From contig OZ237770.1 in NCBI GenBank assembly GCA_965178125.1, forward strand, positions 186,001 to 250,000: 64,000 nt of DNA, given 5' to 3'. The DNA is from Bilabrum cf. latius. Lineage: Eukaryota. Shown here in pieces: positions 1,445 through 64,000 of this stretch (positions within the stretch are counted from its first letter, which is position 1; every line of letters starts with the position of its first letter). The notes beneath the pieces were generated by a model. The model saw nothing but the letters and a program-made list of their open reading frames with translations, made no database searches and was not told the origin of the DNA. Both the position numbers and the translations under genes were made by a program.

Positions 1445-4400
1445 ATGGCAGGCCAGTCCCAGAGCAACGCTGGCGGCAATACTGCTCGCCCCGCGGTCCT
1501 TGGCCAAGCAGCTTCTGGAGCGCGACCGCTGGCAGTTAGACCACCTGCATCGATGGGTGTATTTGGATCTGGAAGGCCGGCATCTGCAGGTGCATTCGGA
1601 GTTCGTGGCCTTCCGGGCTTGCCGGCTGCGAGCGGTGCTCGCCCGCGAGCAGTTGCCCCGGCATCGGCCCGGCCCAGCACTGCGCACTCGTCACACGGAT
1701 CGGTCACGGCACGGCCGGGCTCCATGCAGGGGTTCGGTCGCCCCGTTGGACTGTCGTTCGGCAGGCCTGGGCCCAGCACTGGCACTGGTACAAGCCCAGG
1801 CACAGGGTCGACTGGATTCGGGCAGGGCAAGGGCAAGGGCAAGGGCAAGGGGCAGGGCCGTGCTGACCCCCACGCGGGGCACGGCCCGAGACCGTCTGGC
1901 GCGCACTCGTCACAGCCAGTCCCGAGACCACACCAGCCGCAGTCCATTCGGCCCCCTCCACAGTCCCGGTCCCAGCCACCGACATAGGCATAGCAACCGA
2001 CATAGCCACAACCACAGCCACAGTCACAGTCGCGAACACCATTTGCACCCGGCCCAAGGCCCGGCTCGTTCGTGCGACCACCCGTAGTTCCGCAAAACGG
2101 CGCCGCGCACGGCGCACGGCCCGGCCCCCCCTCAGGCGGAGGTGTGGTGAAGCATCCCATGGTGCGACCAACGGTGCGGCCGGGGCACCAGCCGCAGGCG
2201 AGGCAGGCCAACCCACCCCCGAGAATCGAGCCTACACAGGCCCCCCGCGTTCTCTACACGAGCGCGGGGAGGCCCCAGTTCTACAACACGGGAACCGGGA
2301 GCGCGCTGCCTCCGCCTGGGCACACCCATTACGTTGTGGAAGATGAGGGCAACGCTTCGCCGCGCTGCCTTCGATCGACGCTGTACAGGGTAAGGCCTGA
2401 GATTTGCAGTGCATGCTCATGTGATGCTTCGCTTGTGCTCCAGCAGCTGCTACATGCTCCCCCTTGCAGTGTCACCTCCTATTTTCCGAGCATGTGGTTC
2501 TTGACTTCCGCTCTCCATTCCCATTTTCAACCACTTCTTCTTCGCCCCTCCCCCCGCAGATCCCGACGACCAAGGCCCAGCTCGAGAGCACGCACCTCCC
2601 CCTCGCACTGTGCGTCACACCACTGGCAGAGCAAGCCGACGGAGACTCGCCCATGGAATGCGTGGATTTCGGAGAGGCGGGCCCTCCACGGTGCAAATCG
2701 TGCAGAGCCTACATATGCGCGTTCAACAACTGGAAGGACCAGGGGAGGAAGTGGGACTGTGTCATGTGCGAGACGGAGAACGATACACCGGTGGATTACG
2801 TGGGACCGATCGACCACACCGGGCAGCGGCTGGACAGGCGGGACAGGGCGGAGCTGTACAGGGGCTCGATCGACTACATCGCGCCCAAGTCGTACTGGCA
2901 GAGGACGCCGCTGGGCAGCCTCCAGCAGCCGCATTCGCCCTCGTTTGTCTTCCTCGTCGACTGCTCGGCCGCTGCGGTTGCAACCGGCGCGACGTCGCTC
3001 GCGATCCGATCCGTCCGAGACTGCCTGGATTCTCTGCCGGCCGGGACTGCCACCCGCGCGGGGGTGGTTGCCTACGGCCGGACCCCCTTCTTCTTCAAGT
3101 GCGCCAACACAAAAGTGTCCAAAGAGGCCAAGGAAGCCCACGCCATGGCGGCGCAGCAGGCCGCGAAGGGGGGTAGACCCCCTCCCCCGGGGCCCACCCC
3201 GGACCACGGGGAATACCCCGAGGAGGACGGGGGTCACCCCATAGTGGGGCGGATCCCCGTGGCGGAGGGTGTCGACCTGGAGCACCCGTGCGGCGTTTTG
3301 GCTCCGAATTCGCTGCTGGCGGCCCTGTGGGCGCCGGCCCGGGATGAGGCTGGTCAGCTGTAGGGGGGGCTGGTGCGGGCCCGGGGCCGCGCGCGTCTGG
3401 AGGCTGCCTTGGGTCAGATCGAGGAGGCCGCGTGCGGGGGCATCGAAGGGGCCCCTCGGCTGGCGGACGCGGGGCGGTTGCAACCTCCTGGGGAACAAGA
3501 GGGGTACCAGTCATGGGCGCTGAGGGGGGAGCCCGCGAGAGACTGCGAGGCGGAGGAGGAGGAGGAGGAGGAACGGAAGGGTGCATCGCACGATGGCACC
3601 TCGTGGAGGCCAAGCCAGCAGGACGTGGTCGACACGATCCGGGGCTCGGCACCGGGCCCGACGAGTTTGGGTGCAGCGCACGGTATTTGTTAGGATAGTC
3701 CCGTCGCAGCGAGGGATGCTCGGGGCGGCTGGTTTGTTCCCTCCTCCGAGTCGTGCGCCGTGTCGGCGGTGGCAGCGGTGGTCGACAGTCTCGGCCACTG
3801 CGGAGGCCGGGTCATCTGGTTCGTGGGACGGGGCCCCTCGGTGGGGATCGGCGCAGGTGTGACGAGTACATTGGGGGCGGGTGTGACGAGTGCGGCGGGT
3901 GTGTACGGGACGGACGGCGAGCGGTCGCTGTACACGGCCAGCTCGGAGGGTCCTGCAGTGCAGTGCACCGATGCATTGGGCGCGCTTGGGAGGGAGGCTG
4001 TGGAGAGGCGCGTGTGCGTGGATCTCGTGCAGGCCTCCTCGGGGGATTGCGGGGCCGCGGTTCTCGGGATCCTGCCTTAGCTGACGGGGGGTGCGCATCT
4101 GCGAGTTCCAGAGATGAGCGACCCGGGGAGGAGGGCTAGAGCTGCAGCGGTGCTGGCTCGGGCGGGTGTCCCCGGGGGAACAGGGGGGCAGGGTGCCCCC
4201 GGTGGGGGCCCGCCTGGAGGTGGGGGGGCTGGTACCCCGGTAGCTGGAGGGCCAGCAGTAGGTGCATCGCACGGTGGTGCAGCCCCAGGCAGCCCGCCCA
4301 AAGCCACCGGACGGGGGTTTGCCGGCGGGCCAGGTCTCCCTGCCTCCGGAGCCGGCGGCACCACCGGCCCCCCGCCGTCGGGGCCGGGTCACCATCGGAC

Positions 4401-6555
4401 CTCCAGTTCCGGTTTGAGCGTGCACTCTGCCGCTGCCCGCGCGCTGCAGGGCAAGGGCAAGCGCGGGCATGGCAGCAGCACTGGCAGCGGGGGCCCCCCC
4501 GTTCAGATCAGGGCAGACGGCCTGGGCTCCCCGCAGGGGGGTGGCCAAAGGGGTTCAGCCTGGGGAACAACGTCGGCGCAAGGCAGTGCTCCGCCGCAAG
4601 GATTTGGGGGCGGGCTCCCGCCCGACTCGATTCGGGCGGGCGCGGGCTTGGTGAGCGGTCCTGTCGGCGTGTCGGGTGGCGGCACGCCAGTGCCAGGCAT
4701 GGGCACCGCCGCTGGCATGCACCACGGTCCTACTGGTGCCGCGGCAGTGGATCACGGCTGGGGCTTGGGACCTCTGCCTTCCGAGTTTGAGCTGTTTGGA
4801 GGCGCGGGGCAGGACGGGGAGCCTGCCGTGCCTCTTCGTGTGGCTGCTCGACGACTGCGGGACCAGCTGTGCTTTGCGCTGGGCCAGCCGTCTGGGGCCG
4901 CGGCGATGTTCAAGCTCAGAACAAGCAAGGGACTCGAGGCGGGCGCGATGAGCGGAAACGTGCTGCCGTAGTCCAACGACCCCGGTGCGTGCGACATGGC
5001 TGGCGTTGGTCCGCTGTCCACCATCGTGATTGACCTGGGGCTGACCAAGACGATCCCATCGAGGGGCACTGAATACGTGCAGGCTGCTCTGCTCTACACG
5101 ACTGCGTGGGGCGAGAGACGAGTGCGGGTTCACACGCTGGCTCTAGAAGCCAACGACCAGAGCAGCTACACATACAGGTTCGCGGACCTTGGAGCCATCG
5201 GATGCTACCTGGCCCACAGAGCAGCGGATTAGGCGGCCATGGCTCCCATGAAACAGGTGCAGACGGACGTGGTTAGGACGGTCCGTGAGATGCTAAAGCA
5301 CTACAGGATGGAGGTGGCTAGGAATCACAGGCAGGGGCAGCTGATCCTGCCCGAGGGTCTCAAGACCCTGCCCCAGCTGACCACTGCCATGCTGCATTCA
5401 ACGGCGTTTCACCACAACCAGGGCCAGGCACACGCCACCACCGCGCAGAGGTACGCCTCGCAGGGTGCGGAACATGCGCCGCGCGGCGTGTTCGGTCGCG
5501 ACCCCGGGCACGTCCTGTCCAGTGACCCCACGGGTATGCTACCCCTGAGGGTGGGGTCCCCCATGGTGGGGGCAGGGAACACAAGGTGGGCTTCCATGGA
5601 GGGACCCTGGCTCACAGGCATCATGGGGGTGAGGGTGACCGCGGACGCGCGCGCGGCTGCACTGCACTGTGCGAGGGGGTTGGCCCCTCAGGAATGGGTC
5701 CGTCAGGTCTTGCCACGGTGCTTCTGGGTCAACCGCCCGGACGAAGAGGAGGCAGGGACATGGATGAGGAGGAGGGGCGCGGTGGACGGGGAGCACCCCG
5801 ATGAGGCACCAAGGGGCGGGAGGGACTGGACCATCGTGCCCATGGAGCTCTACGCAAGCACGCTGCACGTCAGGATCGAAGGGTCTCGCAGGATCGCACT
5901 CGTCGACGCGGCAGCACCCATCGGGCCGGTTCTGGTGATCGGTTCGAAGGTGCCCGATACCGACGTGGAGGCTCTGTTCGGGCCCGAGGATGGCGGCTGG
6001 ACGAGGTACCTCCCCAGGGAACAACAGGAGGGTGGGGTGGAGGGTGCCAGCGAAGAGGATCGGTCGCGCCGTGGATCCACGGCCAGTGGTGCTGCGGTCG
6101 GCGCGGGCGTGGAGGCCGGTAGCACCAGCAGCACAGGCAGCAGAGCGAGCCATCGGAAGGGCCGAAGGAGCCGGAGGAAGAGCGACGAAGAGCTCTGCCC
6201 CTAGCAGCTAGCGGCACGCCTGCCGCCGCGGCCCGAGGTAAACCTCTGGCGGCTCGGTGTGGGAGGCGTGAGCGGCGGCAAGCGCGACAGGGACAGGGAC
6301 AGGGGCAGAAACCTAGGCATGGCCGAGGCGCTCGCCGCGGTGCTGGAGGAGCTGGCGAGGCAGAGAGCGGAGACAAACCCGCGGCCCGCCACGCTCCAGG
6401 CGATTTGCGCCTCGGACGGACCGGCAGCGGAGGAGTGGCTGGGCTGTTTGCTGGTGGAGGACGAGCTGGACGGCTCGCCCTCGTACGTTGGGTCGCTGTG
6501 CGACGCTCACCTGGAGGTGCAGGAAGCCTTGGCGCGTGGAGGTGGGCTGGGCTGA
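1445..6555 (+). CDS. SEC24: COPII coat subunit Sec24 (~1646 aa when TAG is read as Gln)
   Basis: P/G/Q-rich N-terminus, GNASPRCLRSTLYR|IP (intron 2390-2559), zinc finger RCKSCRAY...WDCVMC, FVFLVDCS, QAALLYT...ERRVRVHTL, GQLILPEGLKTLP. Seven track ORFs from 2464 on share one frame and are separated only by TAG (9 TAGs in the gene). Ends TGA. An alternative ATG lies at 1361. Confidence 0.9.
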
Positions 6556-6792
6556 ATGGGCAGTTTTTGTACGTTGTCTACGGGTACGTGTGGAGCTGGA
6601 CTGGTATTGGCGCACCTTGGCAGGATTCTAGTGGATCCGATGCTTGGATCGGGATCTAAATCTTAAGCTAGCATCCCAAAAAGATCCGGATCAATTACTA
6701 GGCCAAACCTGAATTGTTTCACTCGCCTTCTGACGCTGCTGAAGCAAACACACGTATAACCGAAAATTTTTGACCGGGATCCCGGGGCTGGT

Positions 6793-8664
6793 TCATTGAG
6801 CTCCGCTGATGCGCACAGCCACGGCATCTCCGGTCCCGCGCACCGTGGCCCACCCAGGCAGCGAAGGCAGCGACAAAGTCAACCCCTTGTTCCCTGCCCC
6901 CCCGTGAACTGTGACGGAAGAGCCGCCAAACCCAACGAGTGCACCAGACAGGCCACTGCCAATCAACGCGCTCTGCTACCGACCGCCAGCCACCACCACA
7001 GGCTCGGTCAGTGTCACGTTGAGCGTCCCATCGGGTCCACTTCCAGCCACCCCACCTAAGTTAGGATACGGCCTGAAGATCGCGTACAGCACCGGATCCG
7101 ACCCTTGCTTCACGGTGTAGGCGATTTTGGACACCCCCGATCTTCCGCTGGAGCAGCCCGCCCTCCAGACAGGCTCCCAGTCCGGATCTGTCCTGCCGTA
7201 GCACTGGCCCGCTAGCGAGGGCGGGGCGCCCTGGGAGCCGTCAAAGTAGGAGAACGAAAAGCAGCTGCCAGCTGTTGCCTCGTCGTTTGCCCTGCTGCTG
7301 ATCGAACCGCCCTGCCCATCGTTCGCCCTGTCCAAAGCAGCGGCCGTGCACAGCTTCTGGCACCCCTCGATCCCGCCGCCCGGTTTGCCCAGATACGCCA
7401 CCCCCACTGTGGAATTCGATTCCGAATTGTCAGGGATGGCCACGCACTGACCCGCCTGCACCTCGGGAAAAGATGCGGAATCAAAAACCACCGTCTCGCC
7501 CGTGGCTCCGTGGGCCGCGCTCCGCGGGTCGGTACCAAAGATGGCATCCCCGGACACGTTCAGCCAGCGACCAACCGTGCGGAGCAGCTGCTCCTGCGCG
7601 ATCGGAACGAGGCCGGCGCTATCCGGCCCGAGGTTCAGGATCAAGTTTCCTCCATTCGACACCGTGTCGGCCAGAAGCCCGACAAAGTAGGACGAGGGCT
7701 TGTAGACGGCAGCACCCTCCGTTCTTGAGTATCCCCAGGACACTCCAATGGTCTGCCAGAAGGCCCACGGGTGGGACCTACCGTCCTTGGCTCCTTCCCC
7801 GTTGCAGAAGGGGCTGAGCCCGCCCTTTTCGCACACGTAGTAGCCCCCGTGCCTCCCCCTGCATTCGTTGCCCCAGCGGTCGTTCACTGCGATGTCGCTT
7901 CCCACCGTCTGGTTGTTGAACAGCCACGCAAGGAACTGCTTTGTCTGCCAGAATGTGGAGTTTTGCTCCCACTCCCCATCCACCAGCAGATCGTCTGGGA
8001 GGTAGTCAACGGCCTCCCGTAGGGACGGGTGAAGCCACTCTGTGACGTAGGAGCTGGGGTCCGGGCCTCTATACAGGGGGTTGAACCACTGGAAGATGGT
8101 GTGGTACAGGCCTACTCGGAGCTTCTGCCTGCGCATAGCTCGCGTGAAGGCCTGTATCAGGTCCCTTCCTGGTCCCACATCGACGCTGTTCCAGTTGTAG
8201 TTGACCGTGCTCGGGTAGAGCGAGAAGCCGTCGTGGTGCACAGAGGTCAGGTAGGCCATCCTCGCGCCAGCGTCCTTGAACAGCTGGGCCCACTGGTCCG
8301 CATCGAACAAATCAGCATGGAAGTCGTGCGCCAAGTCGGCGTAGGTTGCATCAGGTCCGTACCGCCGGGCGAAGAAGCTCTCGGCCACGTTTTTGGAGTT
8401 TGGGTCGTAGGGACCGTGCTGCCCTAGTGAGTGCCAGAACCACTCCGAGAACCCAACATTGGGTGGAATAGCCTGCTTGCTTGGATTAGAAAAGGATGGG
8501 ACGCTGTAGACGCCCCAGTGGAGGCTCACCGCGAACTTGACGTCGCTCCACCACTTCGGATTCGGCCGCGAGTCCAACGAGTCCCAGTTTGGCTGATACT
8601 CTGCAAGAGCTACGGCAGAATAAAACAAAGCATACTTAATGCAATGCGACACATGCTGCTGCAT
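6793..8664 (-). CDS. Alpha-L-fucosidase (GH29) with a Cys-rich PAN/apple-like insert
   Basis: YQPNWDSLDSRP, HWGVYSVP, HHDGF, VNDRWG, SWGY, GGNLILNLGP. Reading through the TAG at 6976 adds a plausible C-terminus (GLTLSLP...AVRISGAQ) ending TGA at 6793. Start codon uncertain. Confidence 0.88.
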
Positions 8665-8813: not shown

Positions 8814-10041
8814 ATGGCATATTGCATGAGCTCCAGCGAAAGCGAGAAGTCGATTTCATTTACTGCTAAAGCATATGACCCGAGCAAGCATGCATCGATA
8901 GATGGGAAACGCTCGAAAATTGTGTTTTGCGTTCGACATGCTCAGGGTGAGATCAACTGGTTCTATCAGCATTTGGAGTCAGGTGGTGTCATATTTGTGT
9001 GGATATCATGAAACCCAGCTATATTGATATATCCTGTGCTGACTGCGCATACTCCAATCGACCGTGATACTGGCGCACTTGCGAAGATTCTATCGTACTA
9101 CTGAAACGCGTCACTGCTTCAACCGGATCTTCGCAGGGTTCCACAACAAAGCAGTGGAGGAAACAGGAGACCCAGAGGAGTATAAGAATTGGGATTGGAA
9201 TGATTCGCGGTGAGCATTGTATCTGGCCATCGTGCAAGTAAATACGGCTGAATATGGCAAGGTGGCTCTGCAGAGGTTACAACCACATCACTGGCTGTGC
9301 TTTGCCGCCTCTTCAAAGCGTGCGGCTGGGCCAACTGCGCCGCATGGTACTATTGAAGGGTGTGCATGCGATAACCAAGAGCTTACGGATATGGCCGCCC
9401 ATCGTCCGCCCATTTGAATATCGCACTGTCGATCCGTTCTCACTACCGTCCCTACCCTAAGCTCCTGTATTCCGATATTCTCGGCTTCTCTCGCCCGCAG
9501 TCTGACAGAGAAAGGGGAAGAGCAGGCCAGGGCACTAGGAGAGCGCGTGGCCAAGGAGGCGATCGAGCCCCAGGTCGTGCTTGTCTCGTCCCTCTCTCGG
9601 GCCATCAAGACGGGGCTCCTTGGGTTCCCCGCTGCGGCCAAGGCCGGCGTGTCCTTCGAGTGCGTGGACGATTTGAGGGAGACGATCGGGACCCACCCTT
9701 GCGACAAGAGGCGGTCTAGGAAGGAGCTGGGCGAGGATTTCCCAAGCGTGGATTTCAGCTCGCTGGACACGGAAGAGGACGAGAGGTGGAGCGAGGCTCG
9801 TGAGACGGACGACGCCATCAACGAGCGGGCGAGGGGCGTGCTGGGGCTGCTGGCGGGGCGCAAGGAGGAGCGAATCGCGATCGTGTCGCACAACGATTTT
9901 CTCACGGCGATGCTGTTCAATTCTGGGCTTAAGTTTGCCACGCCGGAGGACGAGCGCGCGCTCCGGGTCAAGTTCGGGAATGCCGACCTGCATGGCATGG
10001 TGCTCGAGTGGGAGGAGGAGGCGGTGGGAGAGGGGAAGTGA
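8814..10041 (+). CDS. Histidine phosphatase / phosphoglycerate mutase family protein
   Basis: VRHAQG|FHN, LTEKGEEQA, SSLSRAIKT, IAIVSH. Introns 8947-9136 and 9210-9500 splice in frame. Ends TGA. Confidence 0.88.
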
Positions 10042-10329
10042 TGCACGGCCGGGCTGGGGTGAGCGTGCGAGTTGCATGGGCTAGTGCGTCCTCTGCATGC
10101 CCAGGCTGCCGTGTCTCGCGCTAGGTTCGGTTGCCTAGGTGAATGCCGTCGACCCTGGACTGTGGACCGCCGGCGTGACGAGGGCAGAAATAGACCAAAA
10201 AAATTGTTTCCAATATCAAGTAGTACAGCTATGGTTCGAGCCGCTCGGTTTGCCAAATGGAAACCGATCCATTTTGTTACAATATATGGGAGTGGGATTG
10301 CTGCTGCGTTCGTTGGGTAGACAATAGCA

Positions 10330-11557: not shown

Positions 11558-12653
11558 GGAACCGTGCCCAGGAGGGCTTCGCGGTGATGCCACCTTTTCG
11601 AACGTTCTTGCGATAGTACGAACCTCCGCCGGCGGCGCGGCGTCACACCAGCAGGGGCCCGCGTATCTGAGTCATTTGTACCATAATCTGCGGTACGTAG
11701 GCGAGAATTGCGAGCATATACGGGCACGAAAACAAATACTCCCCTGTTGTCAGTATACAACCAGAATGGGCGCTTGTGGAAGCTTGGTGAGCAATGCCAG
11801 ACCGTGATGGACTAAGGACTTGCGCACCTCCCAGGGCGCACCACAACGATTGCACGCAATATCATGGACAAGCTTGTGTAATTAAACTAAATAATGTTGT
11901 GGATGCATTCAGATAAGCAAGGAATTGTCGCAGTAGCTACCAGCCACAGTTGACGCGTCCAAACAAGCCTCGACGCTACATCGCCGTGAGTGTACCTGTG
12001 TTGAAGAGAGCTCCTCATGCAATCTTTATTCTAGCTTTGCAATATAGTTGCGTTGCTGGCTCAGGTATACCAACTTCAGTTCGTCCAGTGTGAGTTGTTG
12101 CCAGCCTCGTCGAATACCGTGTTTTCTTGCACGCAGACTCATCCGCATCCGGGTCCTCATCCATAAACGTAGGCGTGAGCGAAACGAATTGCCCCAACTT
12201 AGACAGTTGGGCTATTAGTTATTCCTTAAATGGCGTATTTGCGTTGTCTTTTCGATTCTAGAAGGCACGGACAGAGGCCCATGGTGCAGTTGAGTCCAGA
12301 GCAATGATTCTGCCCTGTGGAGTGGACGTCGTCGCACTTGTCCGTCTTTGCAAGCCCAGTAAACAAAAAGAGTCTCGCGTTCTCACTTAAGGACATCGCA
12401 GGGCAAGACAGTACTGGAAGGGCATCGTGGCGGCGGTCGCACGGTTGGTCGCAAACGTACCCAGCGACCGCCATCACTGGGGCATGCGCGCATGCCCGGA
12501 AGTAGAGCTGCAAACAGCGGAACGACTAAGCAGTACGACGTCCTATTGCTATCAATGGCTTTTTAGGGTGATGGTGCGGACCGGCAGCAGCCCGCCCACC
12601 TTAAGCGGAGTGCCGGGGGTGCCGCCACATTGCCGGATTCTGGTCCGACGCCG

Positions 12654-14675
12654 ATGATGGGTGGCAGCCTGAGGGTTCCCAAGCTAGATTTTACCAGGCT
12701 TCGAAATGGAATTACAAGGAAAGGCCAGGCTTCGGCGGCACATACGATTAAGAACAATAAGAAAGTGAAGCCGAAGCGGACGAGTAGCACCAAGCGCCGA
12801 ATCAGGGGCGGGGTCTCCTGGGATCCATCAGATTCAGCGGCGCCGATCTCTGATAGGCAATCGCACAAAATGAAATAGAAAAGTTCGCGATAGCTCTGGC
12901 ACGGGTCAACGTCCAGCTCGGATGGCGCCCGCTGGCGGCCCCCGAGAGAAAATGGCAAGGAAGTATCGGGCTCGAGCAAGTGTTCCAGCAAAGCCGAGCG
13001 GCGCATTTCGGGTGAGGATGTGGCGCAAGACGCACGGGCTGGGCTTCGTCGGCCTGTGACGAGTGAGGAAGAAGAGCACCAGCAGCAAATCGCCTGGAAA
13101 TCGCACGCAAGTCCAAGCCAGCGGCATCTCAACGACGAGCCGACCACGACAATGGCTGCCTTCGATGCAGCAGGAGCAGCCGCCGAGCCTTGCAACTCAC
13201 CGAGGCCAGTACAATACGATCTGACAGATATCCCGAGCAGTAGCCACGCATCCGGCACGGGTGATTCGAACCTAGCAGCTCGCAAGAGCTGTGGCACTGA
13301 GGTCGCGACCCACCCGGTTGCAACCGAAGAGCTCGACAGCGCACTCATCCGGGTGCCCAGCATGGGACAAGTGATGCAAGGAAGAGAAAGCACCCGGTAG
13401 GGACTGGGAAGGGTGCAGGGCATTGACGCGCACGATTCGCGCGCGTGGGTGCACTCTCGCTGGGGAGTTGTCGGTGGTGCCGCGCCCAAGCGGAACATTG
13501 ATGCTGATCCCCCTGTCGCAATTGCCACCACCTGTGGATCGTCCCACACCAGGTAGTCGGCAGGTCTGGGCGCCGCGCAATACAGCGGAACCAGTCCCCT
13601 GACTCGTCTGCCGACTGGCCTCACCGTCTCAGCCGAAACAGACGGTGGCAGCAGCCCAAACGTCGTGGGGGGACAGCAGCACCCAGTGCCGGTAGCAGAC
13701 ACATCTTACGACAGGGTACAGCGCAGTGCAATGCACCTCACATTACCGAAGACCGCTAGCAGCCCCCGGCCGAAACAGGCCGACTTGCCCAACGGTCCGC
13801 TGTCTGTGGTTCACTCGTCACACGCAAGTCTCACTCATAATGCAGTTGATCAATGCAGCGATGGTGACGATGCAGGTAAAGATGTGGCCAAGATGGCCAA
13901 AGTTGCGTGCTCGGTGGACCAACCCGGCAAGTCGAACCGTCTTCACTCGCATTTCAGGGAAAGAGACCCCACTGGCACGCGCGGTGCGATCTCCGGCTCA
14001 ATGGACGACAGTAGCACCAGCAACGGCAGCAGGATCACCCACATTACCAGCAGTGGCAGCAGCAGCAGCATGAGCAGCAGCAGGAGTAGCAGGAGCAGTA
14101 TCGACAGCAGTCATGCCGGCACAGGCGACTTGGAGCAAGATCCCTCGCAACAGGCGCAATCGCGAGCGCCCAGACCACTCGTCACACCGGCACTTGTCCG
14201 GGAGCCGGCCTTGGACCGAGGGCACACTCGTCACTCGAGTACCGCAGTTGCCCTGCCAGTGTTCCGGGATTCGACGGCGGCCTCCTCGGAGAACGCGGAA
14301 CCCAAGCGAACCTTCGCTTTCGAGGACCGCCCCAAGCTCCGGAAAGTTGCAGCCTGCTTATCGAATGAAATGTTGAAGAGAGGGAACGAGAGTCTGTCAT
14401 GCAAGACGTGTTGTAGTGGAGGTGAGAGGGTTGTAGCGCCGGCTGAGTTTGCAGACGGAGAGCACCGTGCGACGAGTGAGAGCCACAGCACGTCCGACGA
14501 CCCGCCCTCTCATACCTTCAGCGAAGAGGTGCCCATGACTTCCGTGGCAGCGAAGAGTCTTCGCTCCGCCGGTGGGATTGATGCCTCACTTGACTCCGAT
14601 CGCCTGCCGGCAGCTTCCAGTCATCAGGAGCGGCATGGCTTGCGAAGGAGATTGGCTGCTGCGTTGGATGGCTGA
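12654..14675 (+). CDS. Hypothetical low-complexity Ser/Arg-rich protein (~673 aa with TAG=Gln)
   Basis: ORFs 12630, 13020 and 13665 share a frame and are joined through 4 TAGs with no TAA or TGA. Ends TGA. No domain recognised. Confidence 0.6.
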
Positions 14676-20300: not shown

Positions 20301-20350
20301 AGGAGTACAGTGCCTGGATAAAGCTGCAATCGTGCTCGCAGTCCCTGTGA
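17327..20350 (+). CDS. FGGY: FGGY-family carbohydrate kinase (D-ribulokinase/YDR109C-like), ~1007 aa with TAG=Gln
   Basis: IGVDVGTGSARA, GFDATCSLV, VILWMCHRA, VSPEMQIPK, CKW, IDAHA, GTSACHM, GVWGPY, EGGQTSAG, GNRCPLADP, CGGLASNPL. One frame with 10 internal TAGs. Ends TGA. Confidence 0.9.
18899..18958 (+). repeat. GCT/GCC trinucleotide tract encoding ~20 Ala inside the FGGY kinase
   Basis: Directly visible in the sequence. Confidence 0.9.
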
Positions 20351-46145: not shown

Positions 46146-46760
46146 TACTGCTTTATCAGCACTGAATCTGGGAAGCCACCAAGTTTGGCGCCGCGCATAA
46201 TTCCGGAACCAACGTTTGCGACGACTCGCCGACGAACCAAACTTTGAAGATGAGTGTGTATTGATTGTCTGTTTGCTATTCTGCAAAGTGGACGCATCAC
46301 CTTGACAACCGTTCCATCATTTTATAAGGTTCATTTGGACCGGATCATCTGAGATTGGTGAGGACGACTCGGAGCGTGGTATATGCCATGGACCAAAGCA
46401 AGTAGCCACGGTGTGTCTTCGCACAAGAACGCTGTCTCGATACACGCTTTCAAGGACATGTTATTGAACATGCGTTGTTGCAATCGTTTTACGTGGAACA
46501 ATTTTAGGCCCAAGAGCTTGCATGCTGGTCCAGGGAACCTGTAGCCGAGCACCCAAAGTGTCTGCACCGTACGCGCGAAACCGATTCGATTGGGTTTGCA
46601 TCGTCAGGCCGCATTTAGCGGGTTTTCATCACCCCAAGTTTGGAATCGCTGTTAGAGATTATAACATACTGCATTTCACGCGTATCACCTCTGATCTGTC
46701 TCGCAGTTACCGATGGGACTGCAACATCACGTGTTGAGATCGCTTCAACGCGTCTCATCC

Positions 46761-52700: not shown

Positions 52701-55700
52701 TGGATCGGATCATGCCCGCCTTCCGAACCAAGCTCCGCACCTACTCGGTGAATCCTCTCAGCACAGTGTCGCTCAGCTCGGACGGCGTCAGCTCCGGAAA
52801 CGGCGCGGGCATGTTCGTGGCTACCACGGCGGACGCAGCCGAGTCGCTGGACCCTCTCGACTCCAGCAGCATCCGGGTTCGGTGCTTCCGGTGCAGGTTC
52901 GTGGGGAACCTTGCGCTGGCTGGGCTGGGCGGTGCCGTGTACGCCGCGGGTGCCACGGATGATGACGAGTGCACCGAGGTGCCGGCCACGTGCACCACGG
53001 GAGCAAAGGCCATCAAGGCGACTTACCTTTCGTTCCTTTAGAGCTGTCCCCAAGATTTCCAGCAGAACTACGCCGGGGGCTCTGGGCCAGACGTGTCCTG
53101 GACGCAGATCGAGCCCACTGGCCTTCTCGCTGTGCTACTTAACGATGACACGCTAGGGGGAGGGGAGCCGGTCGCGACCCCGCACACCAGCCGGCCGGGA
53201 GCCTGTGACTGGGACTCGCTAGAGGGTCCCAGCTACGCGGAATATTCATTTTCCGACAGTGAGCAGACGCGCATCGAAGAGAGCGGAGCCTCCAATCGCA
53301 CCCAGGAGTTCCCGCTCTCGTCCATGCCTACCAACATCGGCTTCGTGCCGAACTACGGGGTCGAAACATCGCCCGAGCCGGGGTCTGTGCTCGCCGCCGC
53401 CGCTTCCAGTACGACCACAACCACTACCACTACCACTACCAGCGGTGGAAGCAAGTTCGAGGAGGCAGACGTTACCTCCAACTTTGGGGAGTCCACGCTG
53501 GCAGTGGAGCTGAGGGACAGGTACGGCTACCGCGTGGATGCAACGCAGTTCGGCCAGCTGATCGTGCGGGCCACTTTGTCGAGGGAGGAGACGCAGAACG
53601 TGGGGCAGTACACGGGAGACAGCACCGACTCGGGGACGGATCGCAGGCGCCTGCGGAAACATGCCAGGCGGCTCGGCAGGGGGCGTGGGTTTGGGGGCAG
53701 GAGACTGCAGGGGGGTGGCGGTGGCGACGAGGAGGATGATAACGAGCCGAGGCAAGGGGAAGATGCAGACGGGAATTTCCTTGACGGGACGGTGACGGCG
53801 GTTCTGTCCGAGGATGGCGTGGCGGAGTTTAACCAGCTCGAGTTCAGGGGGCGGCTGGAGGGTACAGCGACCTTCCAGGTGTACATCGATCCCAGCCTCG
53901 GCGTGAGCGCGTTCGGCACGGTCTTGCAGGTGGCTGACAACTGCACCGGCAGGTCAGAGTTCGACGACGACGATCTCGAGTGCAAGAAGTGCGGTGGTGA
54001 TTACGAGTTCTCCGACGGTCGCAACTGCTTTGCGTGCCCGGCAGGCACCGAGCTGAAAGAAGATTCTCAGTCTGCGCCCAGGGGGGAATGCCGCAGCTGC
54101 ACGAAGGGAAGGTTCTCTGCCGAACGAGATGACGAGTGCACCGAGTGCCCGGTGGGTCGGTTTGCAGAGAGCAGCGGAACCGCTGACGAGTGCACCGAGT
54201 GCCCGCCCGGCAGGTTCACTGCCCTGACGGGATCCACCTCGTGCGAGGCGTGCCCGTTCGGGTCCATCCAGCCGGTCGCTGGACAGTCGGGGTGCACCGG
54301 GTGCGGAGCCGCAGAGGTGTCCGTTGACTCGTCCACGTGCGCGTCCTGTCCCGCCGGGTCGATCCCCAACCCGGTTGCAACCACCCTCGATGACGTGGCG
54401 TGCGTCACTTGCCCTCGCGGCTCGATCTCAGCCGAAGGGGATGAGGAGTGCACCACCTGTCCACTGGGAACGGTGGCCAATGCGAACCGCACGGTCTGCG
54501 AGACGTGCCCAGAGTCCGACGGTGTGACCTGCACGGGCTCGGCGATGTCCCTGGACAGCGGGTACTGGGTGGACGTCGACGACGTGGTGGTTGAATACGA
54601 CACCGAGAGCAACCAGATAGTGAGGATGCCCGAGTCCTCCATCGTACACGTCTGTTCCTCCACGGCGGTGTGCGTGTCCAACCTGACCGATGCTGGGGTT
54701 GCGGTGGATGAAGACGGCAAGGCTGTTGCAGTGCTGTGCGCAGACGGGCACGATTAGGAAGTGCCCCTGTGCTCCGTGTGCGAAGGCGATTTCGCGCAGT
54801 TCAGCGGACAGTGCTCCAAATGCTGGTCCGAAGCCGCCAACACGATCGTCATCGTGATCACCATTCTGATTGCGGTGATCATCGCCGCTGCCATGGTTGC
54901 TAGGACGCGGGCGGCCGCCACAAAGGCAGCTGAGAAGGGCAATCTCCTGTCCGCAACCATCCGGATCGGGCTCAACTACCTCAAGCTGATTACCACGCTG
55001 GGCGCGTTTCGAGCAAAGGCGCCCGAAGTGATCGCCAGTTTGCAGGAGGGTGCATCCACGGTGAGTAACGGGCTGTCCTTCAACGTGCCGCCGGTGGCCT
55101 GCGCCTTTGATTTCACGTTCGTGGGTGTCTTCTGGGCCACCATGACCATCCCCTTACTGATCCTCGCGGGGTGCGCGATTGTGGCCGCGGGACTATACGC
55201 CAGGGCACAGTGCAAAATCCAGCGCGAACAGGCGAGGCGGAGTGAGCTCTCCCCTCAAGAGCAGGCTTCGCTCGATGATAGCGACCCTGTCCCGACGCCA
55301 AACCAGCTGTGGGACACGTACGTTGGCGTGTTCGTGAGCTCGGTGATCATCCTCGTCTTCCTCACATACCAGACAATTCTGGCCACCACGGTCAGCGTGT
55401 TTGACACCTATGACGTCCCGATCGACGGCAAGACGTACCTGAACGCCGACTTTAGAATCACGACGGATGACGCCGTGTACGACCAGCTGGTGGCAGGGGC
55501 TATCGTGTCGATGATCGTGTACGTGGTGGGCATCCCGCTGCTGGCCGCCTTCCTGCTCTGGAGGAACCACGACAGGCTGCACGTGCGGGAGGTTATCGAG
55601 TCCTACGGCTTCCTGTTCCTTGGGTACGAGATTGGGACCAAGGCCAGGGTCAAGAGGGTGGTGGGCGCGCGAGAGCGCGCTACCAGGAAGCAGCAGAACC

Positions 55701-57043
55701 TTGCGAGAGAAGAGAGGTTGGCAGCAGCGGCCGCCAGATCCGCGGCCCGCAGCGCCGGGGCAGATGAGGATGCCGCTGCGGAGGAGGCGGTGGCGCAGCT
55801 GCGTGCCCAGCGCGATGCAGCCGGGATCTCGCTGTCGGGTTCATCTGCAGACAACGCGGTGGATGGGTACCTCGTGGATGGGATTGCAGACACGATGGTA
55901 CAGGAGGTGGACATGGTCGACGATGACAGTGCCAAGAACAGCACCTTGGGTGGGGGTGCTGGCAGGACGGCTGTGATCGGGGTGGCCAGGGAACAACGGG
56001 AGGGTCAGGGCCAGGAGGAGGGCGGCCCGGATGGAAGCGATAGCCAGGGCATGACCCGGGTGGGTACCGTGGCGCTGATCCAGACAGCCAAAGAGGACGA
56101 GGACCCGTTGGTGGGGAAAAGGTCCAACTACTATTTCTGGGAACTTGTGGTTCTCGCTCGGCTCGTGGCGACGGTGCTGCTGAGCGTGTTTGTGGGGGAC
56201 ACGTTCCTGCAGTCGTTCTGGGCGGCGTGTCTCGTGGTCGCTGCGCTGGTGCTGCACCTTTCTTACGAGCCGTTCGAGGACAGGATTCTGAATGTCCTGG
56301 AGGCCAGCGCGCTCATTAGCGTGTTCACGACTCAGATGGGCTCTTTGCTCTTCTTCTTCAGGCAGGACCGCGACACCGAGCTCCTCGTGACATTCGTGCT
56401 GCTTGCCGTGAACATCGCCACGCTCCTGCTCTTTGTCCTCTGCGCCGCCGCGAGCGTGATGCCGCCCGAATGGCTGGCACAATCATGCTGCTGCCCTACG
56501 CTGCTGGTCAGGATCTTCCACAGGAAGCGGGCGGCGTTCGCAGTGATGGAGCTGGAGAAGCGGGCCTCGGAGCACAAGAGGCGGAAATCGAGGATGCTGT
56601 CTAGCGGTGTGACGAGTGGTAAAGACGGTGTGACGAGTGATGACGAGCGGAAGACCCAGCTCGCGTACGCTGCTAGCGTGCCGGTGACTCAGCCTGCGCA
56701 GGCTGCTGGAAGCGGGGCAGCTGCCGCGGTGGCACCTCATGCCGGGCGAGATTCCCGCTCCGAATCCACGACGAGGCAGGCGCTGGCCTCATCTCACCCG
56801 AATGCATCGAACCCGGCATCGAACCCCGGGGGGGACAGCGTCCGCGGCGAGATGGCAAGCCCTGGGCTGGTTCGGCCAGGGACCGGGGGCAGCGCGAGAA
56901 GTAGCGGCTCAGGGGGGGGCGGGCACAGGGTCACCCCAAGGGGGTACGGGGAGGGCTTCGAAGAGGCCGGTGTGGCGAGTGCGGTTGGTGGTGTGACGAG
57001 TGCGGGTGGTGATGGTGCAGGCGAGGGGAAGGACGACAGCTGA
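46761..57043 (+). CDS. Giant (~3360 aa) surface protein: signal peptide, FG-GAP-like region, Pmp-type beta-helix repeats, Cys-rich repeats, multi-TM C-terminus
   Basis: One intron (47231-47430), then a 9.6-kb exon in a single frame broken only by TAG (11 TAGs in the gene). GGG(I/V)...F..N.A repeats, C..CP.G repeats, SYGFLFLGY and YYFWELVVLAR in the TM region. Ends TGA. Confidence 0.85.
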
Positions 57044-57301: not shown

Positions 57302-58374
57302 ATGCACAGAAGATTCGAATAGCACGGCCGATGGAGCTCGGTTCGAGCAACAAGCAGCTAGGCTGCCGCGGCACCACGGCCGCTGTCTTTCGTTGAAAGC
57401 GTAGTTGCAGGAGCCGCGGCTGGTGGCACCGAGCTGCTAGCCATGTATCCACTTGATACTGTCAAGACCAGGCAGCAACTCGTATCTAAGGCTGACGCAG
57501 CGGCAGGGAAAACACCAAGTCTTGTTGGGACTTTGCGCGATATAGTTAAGAAGGAAGGCGCTTCGGCCCTCTATCGAGGTATCTTGTCGCCCTTGGCAGT
57601 CGAACCCTTCAAGCGCGCTGTCAAATTCTCAGCAAATGCAAAATATAATGCATTGATTGTAGGAAACGGAACGAAGACTGTGCTCACGTCAACAATTTGT
57701 GGCGCCATGGCTGGGATGTCGGAGGTGAGCCTGCAGACGCGTCGCGAACTAACGCATGAGACTGCTTGCAAGCTTGCTAGGGATTTCTGCCGCAAATGTG
57801 CCAACTTGGTACGTATTTTTAATCATTACATACCGTGCAGGTGGTTATCATCGCTCCTTTTGAAGTGGTAAAGGTGCGCATGCAGAGCAAGGAGCGTAAG
57901 GCGGTGTACAAGGACACGTTCGACGCAATCCGGAAAATCATGCAGCAAGAAGGGCCTGTTGCATTCGCACAGGGACTTGAGTCCGCTCTGTGGAGATAGG
58001 CAACCTGGAACGGCACGTATTTCGGCGTCATATTCTGGCTGAAGACCCAGGTCCTGTGGTAGCCAAAGACGGATTCCACCCTGTCCGTGCTGGGCCGCAA
58101 CTTTACAGCAGGAGTGCTTGCGGGAACGGCTGCGACCGTGCTCAACACCCCGTTCGATGTTGTTGTTAGCCGGATGCGAAACGTGCTCCCCGGCGAACCA
58201 ACCCCATACCGCTGGGCCTGGCCGAGCCTGGCGCGGATCGCGCGGGAGGAGGGGCCTAGGGCGCTGTGGAAGGGATTCGGAGCCAAGGTGGCCCGGCTGG
58301 GACCAGGTGGTGGTATCATGCTGGTGGTGTTCGAGCTCGTGTCCAACTGGCTGCGGTCTCTGGACGAGAAATGA
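57302..58374 (+). CDS. SLC25A21: Mitochondrial 2-oxodicarboxylate carrier-like, copy 1
   Basis: MYPLDTVKTR, EPFKRAVKF, PFEVVKVRMQ, NTPFDVVVSR, RLGPGGGIMLVVFE. Intron 57725-57840. Four TAGs. Confidence 0.85.
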
Positions 58375-58800: not shown

Positions 58801-59922
58801 ATGCATCGTGCCGTAGACCGTGTCGAGATACACAAATCCGTTCAGGAGAGCAGACCTGCGACTAGGGCGTCGCTGAGGCAGCTATCCTTCGTTGAGAATG
58901 TAGTTGCAGGCGCGGCCGCGGGAGGTACAGAGCTTCTGGCCATGTACCCTCTCGACACGGTCAAAACGAGGCAGTAGCTTGTATCAGCTGGAAATTTTGC
59001 AAAAGGAGAATCTACATCGATCATCGGATCGCTTCGGACGATCGTGCAGAAGGAAGGCGCTTCGGCACTGTACAGAGGTATCCTGTCACCGCTTGCAGTT
59101 GAGCCATTCAAGCGAGCCGTCAAGTTCACGGCCAACGCGAAGTATAATTCGCTCATTGTGGGCAAAGGAGAGAAAACCGTCTTCACTGCGACCCTCTGCG
59201 GATCACTGGCAGGCATATCCGAGGTGAGAAATGCGGCGAATCTTTGCCGCCGTCACCAAGCGTTCGCGCGAACTGTTCGCTGCTTGCATACGAATGGTGC
59301 GCTACGCTACCAATATCACGCATCTGATACGTGTTTCTAATAGCGCGGCTTGATCATCCCATCATGCTCGACAGCCTACCCCAAGCCGCAGATTGGCCTG
59401 ATCGCTCCTTTTGAGGTGATTAAGGTGCGCATGCAGAGCAAGGAGCGCAGGGCGGTGTACAGAAGCACATTCGACGCGCTCTCGAAGGTACTTCGACAAG
59501 AAGGCCCTATGGCGTTCGCGCAGGGCATTGAGCCCGCACTGTGGAGGCAGGCGAGCTGGAGCGGTGCATACTTTGGCATGATCCACGCCCTCAAGACGCA
59601 GGTGCTATGGACACCGGATGCGAACACGCCTGGGTCCTCGCTCGGTCGCAACTTCACCGCTGGTGTAATTGCAGGGACGGCTGCGACCGTGCTCAACACC
59701 CCGTTTGACGTGGTGGCCAGCCGGATGCGGAACGTGCTTCCCGGCGAACCCACCCCATACCGCTGGGCCTGGCCGAGCCTGGCGCGGATCGCGCGGGAGG
59801 AGGGGCCTAGGGCGCTGTGGAAGGGATTCGGAGCCAAGGTGGCCCGGCTGGGACCAGGTGGTGGTATCATGCTGGTGGTGTTCGAGCTCGTGTCCAACTG
59901 GCTGCGGGAGAGGAGCCAGTGA
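58801..59922 (+). CDS. SLC25A21: Mitochondrial 2-oxodicarboxylate carrier-like, copy 2
   Basis: Same motifs as copy 1. Intron 59224-59391. One TAG at 58975. Confidence 0.85.
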
Positions 59923-60919: not shown

Positions 60920-62342
60920 TTACTCCCTCGCTTCTCTAAATCCCTTGAGCTGGGAAGACACCAGCTCATAGAACACGAGAACGATACCACCACCTGGTCC
61001 CAGCCGGGCCACCTTGGCTCCGAATCCCTTCCACAGCGCCCTGGGCCCCTCTTTTCGTGCGATCCGCGCCAGGCTCGGCCAGGCCCAGCGGTATGGGGTG
61101 GGTTCGCCGGGAAGCACGTTTCGCATCCGGCTGGCCACCACGTCAAACGGGGTGTTGATCATGGTCGCAAATGTGCCGGCGATCGTCCCCGCAGTGAAGT
61201 TGCGGCCCAGCACGGACAGGGTGGAATCCGTCTTTGGCTGCCACAGGACCTGGGTCTTGAGGTGGTGAATGATTCCGAAATACGCCCCGCTCCAAGCGGC
61301 GTGCCTCCACATCGCGGGTTCGAGACCCTGAAAGAGGCCCCCCAGCCTTTCATTTTTTGCGATCTGGAGGAAGGCCCTTCCCGCCCCCCTGCTATACCTC
61401 CAACCGTGTTCCCTGCTCTGCATGCGCACTTTGACCACCTCCTGAGGGGCAATGGTCAGGGCCTGCGAGGAGGACACAAAGGAGGGATCATGATTCGAGC
61501 CGAGGAAGGTGCATGACGAGATGCGGGCGTGGTCAATCGCGAGTAGAGGAGCTACCAGGCAGTTACATGCCGTTTGATACATTTCAGAGCATTGTATGAA
61601 CCAGAAAATGACATTGAGAGCAATGGGCTGGGGTCGGCCGAAACGTGTGGTGCACCGTAGCGCCGCGACTCGCCACTCAGAACCAACCATGCTTCGGCAC
61701 ACGTACTATGTATTCGTACGCTTATACGGCCATATCGTGATACATGCTGCACACAAAATCAAATCCACCAGTTCTATGCCTGCACTAGCGCTATATAACA
61801 CATGATTTTCTCACCTCGACCGCACCAGCAAGCGAGCCGCACACAGCTGCTGTACCTGCAGATTTTCTCCGGCTAGAGCCCACTAGCAAATGAGTAAAAA
61901 GCTCATTACCAGAAAATTTGAGTCCTCGCTTTATAGGTTCAATGGCCAGCGCAGAGCCGATTCCTCGGTACAGCGCCTTGGTTCCTTCCGTCGCGACAAC
62001 TGACTTTAGCATGCCCATAATGGAGGCCCTGTGAGGTGAAATCGCGCCGGATCCACCGCTCAATTGCAGACGTGTCTTGACTGTATCTAATGGATACAAG
62101 CACAGCAGCTCTGCGCATCCAGCAGCGCCACCAGCGACTACAGTTTCCCCGAACATCGTCCACTTGGCAGAATAGTCCGTGCTAGTTCCTTTTACAGCGG
62201 CACGATTGCTCTTAAATCCCATCATGTTTTGGTACATGCCAGTAACATGATATCTGCTTGAAGTCTCAGTCGCATTTGTAGCCGTCATGGCACACGGCCT
62301 GAGATTCGAGCTGTGATGGCTTCGAGTTGCAGTTGACATCAT
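60920..62342 (-). CDS. SLC25A21: Mitochondrial 2-oxodicarboxylate carrier-like, copy 3 (inverted)
   Basis: LYPLDTVKTRLQ, EPIKRGLKF. Intron 61814-61463 at the homologous position. Ends TAA. Start codon uncertain. Confidence 0.8.
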
Positions 62343-62424: not shown

Positions 62425-64000
62425 ATGAGTGGAAGGCATCCAGGAAGTGATTTTGGTGGATGGCTCATATCTGGGGCAGTTACAGGAGGTGTGGCGGCTC
62501 TTGCAATGATGATGTACCGAAAACAGCGGCATGATGCAGATTTGTAAGTGCGCCCTTGCCTCCAAAAAGATCACCTGGCATTGATAGGCCATTTGCATTA
62601 TTCCGCGTATGTGATAATTACTCATGGTGCAACGGTGCTCGCTCGCAGGCTTGCTCAGATACCCCAGCGGACGGCGGCCGAGATTCAGGAGCTTGTCAGG
62701 CAGACTTCTCTTGGGGGGAACGAGCCGCCGCTTGTTGCCACGCGTGGCGCCACCGCGCCATCGATGGCTTCTTCATAGCCAAGGCTAAGAATACCGGGCC
62801 TCAAAGCAGACATGCTTGCGGTGGAGCAGAGCACGTTCCTTCATGCGCAGCGGGCGGTCATTGTCAAGAAGCCCAAGCCGTCGTCGCAGGGGGGAGCAAG
62901 AACACAATTGGAGCAGTCCAGCGGTGGTCGCATGGACGGCACCGTCCTTCGATTCGAACAACAAGCCGGTGGAAGCAGCAGCAGCAGCAGCAGCGGCGGT
63001 GTTGGCAGTGGGCCAGCACCGCACCGGCAGTTGCGACCAAACTCGCAGCAGGAGTACAGAGCAGCTCCGGGAGCGCCCAGCGCACCGCCAGCCGATGCTT
63101 CCAATGAGTAGGACCCTCCCATTCGAAACGACAGGACCGCTGGCAGAGAAGAAGAAGATCCGCAGGCGCTGTCGGGGTCAGGTCGCCAATCCACCGGTGG
63201 AGCCGGTACCCCACGCGGCCAGGACCATCGCCGGGCCACATCGCCCACGCCCGGATTCTGGGGCGGAAGTTCCTCCTCCTCCTCCTCCTCCTCCTCCTCC
63301 TCCTCCTCCTCCTCCTCCTCGGCGACTTCGTCCTCGTCACAGGGGCCTGCCAGTGGTCCCACCCAGCCCACGGAGGCCCCTTTTGACCTCGAGATCAAGC
63401 TGCTCAAGGAGCGCAAGCCCGAGTCTACGTACCGGTCCCAGCTGCCCTTCTCGGTGATAGATGAGACAGGGCGAGTTGAGGTTGCGACCGGCGGCGGCAT
63501 GCCGGAGCCGCCGCTGGAGCCAGTCAGGACCCAGCACGTTGTGTTTGACGCCCTGAGCCCGGAGGACAGGTACCAGGCGGGGCGATCGGAGCTGCGGATC
63601 TCGGAGGTGAGGCATCACGAGGCCTCGGGGGTTAGAACCACCAGCTGGCCCAGCCCGCCGGCGTACGGGAAAGTGCCCCAATCCCCGGAGGCGGCCGAAT
63701 CTTTTTCGTCTCGAGAGATAACGTGGTCTGCGCTCCCGGTCGGCACCGTGCTTACGGTGGTCGGCACCGCACGGCGGCTGACCGAAGCAGGGCCTGACGC
63801 GGTCGAGATCGGACCTGGGACTCGGGGCGGGCCCGCCTATGTGACGAGTGAGACGCTTCCATCCCTTGTGCGTAGGCTCGACTCAACGGCTAGTATCACC
63901 TACGGCGTGACTGTGGCGATCGGATTCGTGGCTGGCGCCTTGACTGCAGTGGGGGTGTGGAAGCTGGGACAATGGGCTTGGTCCAGGCTTGGCGCGGGTG
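62425..64000 (+). CDS. MUL1/SP1-like GIDE-domain membrane protein (putative E3 ligase); truncated by the window end
   Basis: N-terminal TM, one intron (~62544-62649), LPFSVIDETGRVEV, LPVGTVLTVVG, PAYVTSETLPSLV, second TM. Two TAGs. A RING domain is not reached in the window. Confidence 0.65.
63271..63320 (+). repeat. (TCC)n tract encoding poly-Ser
   Basis: Directly visible in the sequence. Confidence 0.9.

Follow-up and report, generated by a model that had tools for sequence, protein, structure and literature searches.

A 64-kilobase stretch of nuclear DNA in which UAG most likely encodes glutamine and UAA and UGA remain terminators

In the 64,000-nucleotide (nt) stretch at positions 186,001 to 250,000 of contig OZ237770.1 (hereafter the window), UAG appears to be a sense codon, most likely for glutamine, whereas UAA and UGA remain terminators with UGA preferred; we place the probability of this reading at about 0.83. 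The preliminary description of the stretch had proposed the same code, and the proposal is now backed by transcripts, by alignment columns of homologous proteins, by paralogues and orthologues, and by terminator usage. The window contains no N letters, and its guanine plus cytosine (GC) content is 54-66%, about 60% overall. A poly-A end and spliced introns (147-291 nt, GT..AG) mark it as nuclear DNA of a eukaryote. Pfam and solved-structure searches named genes for Sec24, a GH29 alpha-L-fucosidase, a histidine phosphatase, an FGGY sugar kinase, two sulfatase-type proteins, a GH56 hyaluronidase-like protein, a surface-type protein of about 3,200 amino acids (aa) with ephrin-receptor-like Cys repeats, three mitochondrial carriers of the 2-oxodicarboxylate type (MC1-MC3) and a GIDE-domain protein, alongside several proteins without a family.

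The in-frame TAG triplets are confirmed as real and lie far beyond chance. Over 11,218 codons, in 15 frame-checked coding segments from 13 genes, TAG, TAA and TGA occur in frame 49, 0 and 0 times, compared with 44, 16 and 194 times in the +1 frames and 57, 31 and 157 times in the +2 frames of the same segments. TAG is carried by 11 to 12 of the 13 genes, with the bias in GC content by codon position kept. When TAG is taken as sense, the longest frames measure 3267, 1493, 1376, 1050 and 921 aa, the maximum under the standard code being 875 aa. Taking TAA as sense instead leaves frame lengths almost unchanged. With TGA as sense, frames grow longer throughout the sequence; this is expected, TGA being the commonest stop triplet in GC-rich DNA such as this. 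The gene of the giant surface-type protein contains ten TAG and no TAA or TGA in 3,209 codons, its off-frame TGA numbering 75 and 58. The absence of TAA and TGA arises partly by construction, since the frames are delimited by these triplets, but the frames are complete with respect to homologues: Sec24 extends to the C-terminus of human Sec24C, the fucosidase matches P0296 end to end, and the carriers reach the ends of their paralogues. A scan for stop triplets with coding-looking flanks of 60 codons on both sides returned 41 TAG, 3 TAA (8 if the flanks may hold TAG) and 10 TGA; judged by position, the TAA and TGA that passed its filter on GC at the third codon position fall either at an exon end or in the antisense or an off frame of a known gene, and neither triplet was seen with credible coding sequence to both its left and right.

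With less certain gene models included, the total is 69 TAG in 17 frames, in good agreement with the hand count of about 70 in some 17 frames in the preliminary description. Its nine TAG in Sec24 and ten in the FGGY kinase were reproduced, its statement that internal TAA and TGA are lacking holds throughout the checked codons, and its span of 1445-63111 runs from the ATG chosen for Sec24 to the last TAG (63109-63111). Its eleven TAG in the giant protein were off by one, as there are ten from the ATG at 47414 and 12 over the whole open frame. The genes on which the following paragraphs draw are these:

1445..6555, plus strand: Sec24, with exons 1445-2388 and 2559-6555 and a GT..AG intron (2389-2558); nine in-frame TAG (1985, 1991, 2003, 3361, 3691, 4078, 4969, 5230 and 6202); ends in TGA.
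6793..8664, minus strand: alpha-L-fucosidase (GH29) with a Cys-rich C-terminal extension; one TAG (6976); ends in TGA.
8946..10219, plus strand: 3' part of a histidine-phosphatase gene (Pfam His_Phos_1), with introns 8946-9135 and 9209-9499; TGA at 10039-10041.
11786..14675, plus strand: Ser-rich protein without a Pfam family, with introns 11786-11932, 11986-12136 and 12175-12401; five TAG in the last exon (12564, 12876, 12891, 13398 and 13554); ends in TGA.
17327..20350, plus strand: FGGY-family sugar kinase (Pfam FGGY_C and FGGY_N); ten in-frame TAG; ends in TGA.
40453..41955, minus strand: protein without a Pfam family (orf40453); six in-frame TAG; ends in TAA followed directly by TGA.
47414..57043, plus strand: giant surface-type protein of 3209 aa from its ATG; ten in-frame TAG; ends in TGA.
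57302..58374, plus strand: MC1, mitochondrial 2-oxodicarboxylate carrier in two exons (Pfam Mito_carr); TAG at 57320, 57359, 57997 and 58060; ends in TGA.
58801..59922, plus strand: MC2, tandem carrier paralogue; TAG at 58975; ends in TGA.
60920..62200 (upstream end approximate), minus strand: MC3, inverted carrier paralogue (Pfam Mito_carr in both exon frames); ends in TAA.

Transcript evidence was drawn from a comparison of sequencing runs with positions 1000-20500 of the window, for which eight runs from three studies were found; it involved the DNA run X1 and the runs X5, X6 and X7. No run is recorded as RNA, and the RNA nature of X5-X7 is deduced from spliced joints. Six GT..AG joints (2388>2559, 8945>9136, 9208>9500, 11785>11933, 11985>12137 and 12174>12402) were seen only in X5, X6 or X7 and never in X1. 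Those of the histidine-phosphatase introns are present in all three runs, those of the Ser-rich gene in X5 and one of them also in X7. In addition, X5 displays a loose end of 22 A at 10219, 178 nt past the TGA of the phosphatase gene, whose last exon is free of TAG. On the basis of the joints absent from X1 and the 22-A end, we conclude that X5-X7 hold spliced transcripts. Record 9 of X5 (5471 nt) consists of 1048-2388 joined to 2559-6688 with no other letters, and thus represents the complete Sec24 message, from which the intron has been spliced out and in which each of the nine TAG is retained. The fucosidase gene is spanned by an X5 contig (6777-8685), and record 12 of X5 covers 12402-14044 of the Ser-rich gene, both with no other letters, and the same is true of the listed X5 pieces that cover eight of the ten TAG in the FGGY kinase. 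Altogether, 23 of the 25 TAG sites that these four genes contribute to 1000-20500 lie inside listed X5 pieces without a differing letter, and differing letters are listed only in two repeat stretches (11188-11447 and 15057-17062).

These data speak directly to the idea that the TAG triplets are artefacts or marks of non-function, that is, that they fall in unrecognised introns, are edited to CAG, stem from assembly error or sit in pseudogenes. Because intron-free X5 contigs retain the TAG triplets, introns, editing and assembly error are excluded for the genes covered. Neither CAG in the mRNA nor TAG in unrecognised introns, which the preliminary description had named as observations that would overturn its proposal, was seen at the 23 sites covered. 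The same letters recur in runs of three studies, a metagenome relative shows the same TAG habit, and genes that carry TAG are nevertheless free of TAA and TGA with their codon-position GC bias intact. The RNA evidence is confined to 1000-20500, but no point in support of an artefact was found, and we regard its probability as negligible.

That UAG stands for glutamine is indicated by several local contexts. Four of the six TAG in orf40453 occur in a run of glutamine codons at 40930-40953 (CAG TAG TAG CAG TAG TAG CAG CAG), and TAG in Sec24 exon 1 lies within a Q/P-rich repeat. The TAG of MC2 at 58975 stands at the end of the carrier motif P-x-D-x-x-K-x-R-x-Q, in a nearly invariant column: of 255 repeat copies aligned from 104 homologues, 220 have Q here, and so do all paralogues and relatives. 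At 58060, MC1 reads GTC CTG TGG TAG CCA AAG ACG where MC3 reads GTC CTG TGG CAG CCA AAG ACG, TAG versus CAG being the sole difference in 21 nt, and MC3 itself has no TAG within its recognisable coding part. The MC1 TAG at 57997 corresponds to CAG or CAA in MC2 and in two genes of a metagenome locus.

This locus (L001; 3.9 kilobases (kb), 86% aa identity) and a second one (L002; 3.1 kb) were found in a metagenome scan with a carrier query. L001 shows the tandem MC1/MC2 arrangement (597-2951) with three in-frame TAG and TGA stops; L002 has the MC3-GIDE arrangement, in which a frame homologous to the GIDE frame of the window stands beside the orthologue of MC3. A TAG in L001 gene 1 is CAG in MC1, MC2 and L001 gene 2 and Leu in MC3 and L002, and the L002 orthologue has TAG where MC3 of the window has CAG. 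We conclude that at least one environmental relative (L001) seems to share the TAG habit, the use of TAG in L002 being less certain. In L001 gene 2 (1822-2397), one TAG stands where all five other carrier copies have Gly, which may represent a real change from Gly to Gln, a decaying copy or an error in metagenome assembly.

Column statistics point to the same residue. Summed log-odds over five window sites gave +5.0 for Q, +1.7 for N and +1.1 for H, with Q first of the 20 residues; over nine sites including the metagenome relatives, Q was again first (+2.7), followed by H (-3.8), with S at -7.2 and E at -9.8. In the nine-site sum L was outside the top eight, and the columns do not indicate UAG as Leu, Ser or Glu. 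The most frequent residue at Sec24 site 451 is Q, with 27 of 148. Among the checked codons TAG (49) and CAA (52), the Gln codon that matches it in GC content, have similar frequencies, and CAG occurs 344 times. CAG or CAA adjoins TAG in 8 of 98 neighbouring positions against a background of 0.043 for Q codons, which is suggestive only. Close comparisons with paralogues and orthologues gave Q at five of eight TAG sites.

With respect to termination, 14 genes end in TGA (11) or TAA (3), and none needs TAG as a stop. Where homology anchors the C-terminus (Sec24, MC1, MC2, MC3 and the fucosidase), TGA or TAA occurs where expected, and both carrier genes of L001 end in TGA. This pattern bears on the view that UAA and UAG (UAR) both encode glutamine, as in translation table 6, and that in-frame TAA is simply too rare to be displayed in 64 kb of a GC-rich genome. 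Such a code would fit the codon usage, which disfavours A-ending codons, and the predominance of TGA; a coupled change of UAA and UAG is also by far the commoner pattern according to PMC5304391 and PMC11687900. If TAA were glutamine at the ratio of CAA to CAG, however, the checked codons should contain about seven TAA in frame; none is observed, nor is any TAA flanked on either side by coding sequence in a way that is credible for both flanks. Moreover, three genes end in TAA: that of MC3 falls at a C-terminus of the length expected from its paralogues, and that of orf40453 has TGA directly after it. In the window UAA is thus not seen as sense, nor is UGA the sole stop, although the sample is small and the statement not absolute. 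We therefore consider a UAR code improbable.

A number of observations weigh against the reading of UAG as glutamine with UAA and UGA as terminators. Run X5 is labelled 'RNA? (probably DNA)', and its unspliced pieces may be DNA, although the spliced ones cannot. The window holds only three TAA terminators, and open reading frames defined by TAA and TGA cannot show the absence of termination at TAG. The residue assignment itself, judged from alignments, is based on few informative sites. At the remaining three of the eight closely compared TAG sites, the counterpart is E (two sites) or the G kept in all five other copies. Columns of distant homologues favour H or N at MC1 site 55, L at MC1 site 76 and R at Sec24 site 364 (R 49 of 105, Q 5), and the column of the L002 TAG contains aromatic or hydrophobic residues. 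The correspondence of the Sec24 motif ILP-TAG-LTGG with Q of human Sec24C and Sec24D relies on weak alignment pieces (6.7 and -2.7 bits); this site (67) is aligned in 8 of 150 representatives without a consensus, and site 775 in none of the 150. The GH56 TAG sites align with V, with K/R/K and with G/M/G in three solved structures and are uninformative, as are one FGGY site that aligns with P and the fucosidase TAG, which lies in a poorly aligned tail.

The possibility that UAG is sense for a residue other than glutamine (His, Asn, Glu, Leu, Ser or Lys, as in further variant codes) draws on the deviating columns, some of which favour H/N, R, L or aromatic residues, and on the close comparisons that give E twice and G once. 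Against this stand the first rank of Q among 20 residues in both log-odds sums, the TAG codons inside a CAG run, the TAG at the conserved carrier Gln, and the MC1/MC3 pair that differs in TAG versus CAG only. A different residue is highly improbable in our view.

A further alternative is that UAG is ambiguous, coding within genes yet ending translation in certain contexts, as is the case in Condylostoma, karyorelicts or Blastocrithidia. Frames delimited by TAA and TGA would read through genes that truly end in TAG; two TAG of the FGGY kinase lie at most 21 codons from its TGA, and the TAG of the L002 carrier lies about 6 to 9 codons before the expected C-terminus. Yet each gene whose C-terminus is anchored by homology has its TGA or TAA at the expected place, and the L002 TAG aligns with CAG of its window orthologue. 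Ambiguity of this kind is accordingly very unlikely. The earlier claim that no gene ends in TAG stands for the 14 genes with assigned terminators, but frames delimited in this way cannot exclude TAG termination.

Returning to UAG as a dedicated glutamine codon of a GC-rich, intron-bearing, aerobic eukaryote, we suggest that it would be decoded by a tRNA-Gln with the anticodon CUA, by analogy with other UAG-only lineages as PMC11687900 describes them. This tRNA would probably derive from tRNA-Gln(CUG) via one anticodon change. Lacking pairing with the anticodon CUA, UAA could have been retained as a stop. By analogy, eRF1 would have lost or weakened its recognition of UAG, and heavy reliance on TGA for termination (11 of 14 genes) may, speculatively, have limited the cost of the change. 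A search for tRNA genes found none in the 64-kb window or in L001 and L002, Rfam families were matched in none of the three, and eRF1 is not among the genes of the 64-kb window.

The remaining genes and frames of the window are the following:

14992..16476, plus strand: open frame in a multi-copy repeat, with TAG at 16078, 16123 and 16234; no Pfam family; coding uncertain.
21267..25748, plus strand: Cys-rich membrane protein, paralogue A, with TAG at 21822, 23460 and 23562; ends in TGA; no family.
28110..30788 (frame to 30875), minus strand: Cys-rich membrane protein, paralogue B, with one TAG past the first ATG (30738); ends in TGA.
34917..35897, plus strand: last exon of a sulfatase-like gene, with TAG at 35046 (maybe upstream of the exon) and 35469; ends in TAA.
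42802..44703, plus strand: sulfatase, two exons seen (42802-43530 and 43723-44703); ends in TGA; Pfam Sulfatase, E-value (E) 1.6e-10.
44997..46199, minus strand: GH56 hyaluronidase-like protein, with TAG at 45927, 45765 and 45453; ends in TGA; Pfam PF01630, E 8.1e-39.
62548..64000, plus strand, running off the window: GIDE-domain (MUL1-like) protein (Pfam GIDE), with TAG at 62776 and 63109.

Paralogue A is a 1493-aa frame only with TAG as sense, and its GC content by codon position is 0.67/0.58/0.72. It is 34% identical to paralogue B, with the TAG sites outside the aligned blocks; both share a striking Cys-rich block (D-P-C-C-G-C-G-F-G ... C-C-P-G-G-Y ... P-P-S-R-L-G-G-S), and neither protein has a Pfam family. 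The exon at 34917..35897 has codon-position GC values of 0.59/0.52/0.74 and no Pfam match at E<=0.01, and the name sulfatase-like comes from reading the sequence, Pfam giving it no backing. The sulfatase at 42802..44703 has a weak SGSH_C match in addition, and two TAG near the start of its first frame lie possibly outside the exon. The GH56 protein matches bee and human hyaluronidases in the PDB. In the giant protein, the Cys-rich repeats are ephrin-receptor-like (Pfam Ephrin_rec_like) and membrane spans are located at the C-terminus. Sec24 comprises the Sec23/24 zinc finger, trunk, beta-sandwich and helical domains of Pfam (Sec24C in the PDB, E 3.7e-50), the FGGY kinase matches PDB 3gg4 (E 2e-31), and the fucosidase matches Pfam PF01120 (E 1e-88) and human FUCA1 (E 2.7e-76).

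Sec24 (2560-6552) and the FGGY kinase (17327-20347) are inflated by long low-complexity inserts rich in Gly, Pro and Ala; exon 2 of Sec24 encodes 1331 aa, compared with about 770 aa in human Sec24C/D. These inserts defeated word-based protein search, the first search with Sec24 yielding four matches among 8000 scored candidates. Within 40 kb, the window combines the fucosidase (6793-8664), sulfatase-type genes (32500-35897 and 42802-44703) and the GH56 gene (44997-46199), a set that resembles the glycosaminoglycan-degrading enzymes of animal lysosomes and may bear on diet or host. Two multi-copy repeats (10765-11450 and 14670-17275) raise the summed contig depth in run X1 from about 22 to 200-800; with their many variant letters and internal joints they are probably a transposon or another dispersed repeat.

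The phylogenetic hints from single genes, a choanoflagellate-type fucosidase and an environmental carrier clade, are weak and conflicting. The best named matches of the carriers are about 50% identical and come from chytrids, Glomeromycota, Parvularia, Clastostelium, Spironema and Andalucia; in a quick tree, the window carriers form a clade with unnamed environmental sequences and the long-branched testate amoeba Pyxidicula. In databases this clade is represented by short protein fragments (136-181 aa). Gene calling under the standard code would be expected to cut proteins in this way, but so would introns. Across genomes, the carrier copies do not pair as simple orthologues in the tree. In their C-terminal halves, MC1 and MC2 agree in every residue over a stretch of about 60, and the block is identical among the L001/L002 copies too, which suggests gene conversion. 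Sec24 has its best named matches in a pedinophyte, in Mastigella and in a basidiomycete, at about 35%. The fucosidase falls in a seven-row clade (SH-like approximate likelihood ratio test (SH-aLRT) 99) with the choanoflagellates Savillea and Didymoeca, on long branches, together with an unnamed EukProt entry and an MMETSP entry. Its Cys-rich tail (6796-7500) aligns end to end with choanoflagellate proteins of EukProt in which Pfam places PAN domains; in the tail of the window fucosidase Pfam called no PAN domain.

GH56 hyaluronidase is a trait of the animal side. Because the GH29 fucosidase with its Cys-rich tail groups with choanoflagellates and a GH56 gene is present, the organism may lie near Holozoa. 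We consider it possible, though doubtful, that UAG = Gln arose independently in an unsampled GC-rich aerobic lineage, free-living or host-associated, outside ciliates and metamonads, maybe near Holozoa, whose environmental relatives share the code. Amoeboaphelidium, which has a UAR = Gln code, was rejected as a match: its genomes have 40.5% and 39.9% GC versus about 60% here, and no close match was found in NCBI, where its proteins have accessions (PMC10608142).

Nuclear code changes are rare, and even fewer of them involve a reassigned UAG with UAA retained as a stop. Uncoupled cases bear on why UAA and UAG usually change together, a question of wobble pairing by tRNAs with UUA as opposed to CUA anticodons. 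A further, probably independent case would make codon-capture and ambiguous-intermediate ideas testable outside AT-rich ciliates, in a TGA-preferring genome of 60% GC with GT..AG introns and mitochondrial carriers, and would supply a new natural pair of an amber-decoding tRNA and a UAG-blind eRF1. Should the placement near Holozoa be true, the animal side of opisthokonts would gain its first nuclear code change. In practical terms, gene calling with the standard code breaks most genes of this organism and of its environmental relatives.

Among known codes, the closest counterpart is that with the assignments of NCBI table 15, in which UAG alone has become Gln. The window shares with such codes that UAG is sense in most genes and best read as Gln and that UAA and UGA terminate; all four sequence-level marks (in-frame UAG, alignment with Gln, UAA as stop and UGA as stop) are found, the Gln sample being small. 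PMC5304391 and PMC11687900 report UAG-only = Gln from Iotanema spirale, from Protocruzia tuzeti and, independently, from Hartmannula sinica and Trochilia petrani, and PMC11687900 reports UAG = Ser from Scotinosphaera. The list of known cases in the preliminary description, Iotanema among them, is incomplete by comparison with PMC11687900: Protocruzia tuzeti and Scotinosphaera are missing, and the phyllopharyngean Gln cases represent two lineages.

Unlike the known UAG-only = Gln lineages, the window is GC-rich, prefers TGA and contains GT..AG introns of the lengths given above. An anaerobic fornicate is not expected to have such mitochondrial carriers, and in this respect the window differs from what Iotanema would lead one to expect. 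Phyllopharyngean ciliates with a reassigned UAG have 27.4-53.6% GC, with UAA as their most frequent and UGA as their least frequent stop (PMC11687900), a preference opposite to that of the window. A literature search at the level of titles and abstracts, with subscription papers mostly outside it, found no UAG-only = Gln code for a GC-rich, TGA-terminating non-ciliate, nor for a choanoflagellate.

With the UAR = Gln codes of many ciliates, Dasycladales and other ulvophytes, Hexamita, oxymonads and Amoeboaphelidium protococcarum, the window has the change from stop to Gln in common, but here TAA terminates and never occurs in frame. A precedent for such a change in an opisthokont, outside ciliates, is Amoeboaphelidium protococcarum, in which both TAG and TAA are reported to encode Gln (PMC5304391 and PMC6299283). 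Other codes with an uncoupled UAG assign it to Leu (the rhizarian exLh and phyllopharyngean metagenome-assembled genomes from TARA), to Ser (Scotinosphaera) or, with UAA as Lys, to Glu (an oligohymenophorean ciliate). They share with the window a UAG that changed without UAA, the proposed logic being a tRNA with the anticodon CUA that does not read UAA; in contrast to them, the UAG of the window is best read as Gln, with Leu, Ser and Glu scoring lower. On the basis of these comparisons, we propose that the window organism is probably a further case of the known UAG-only = Gln code type.

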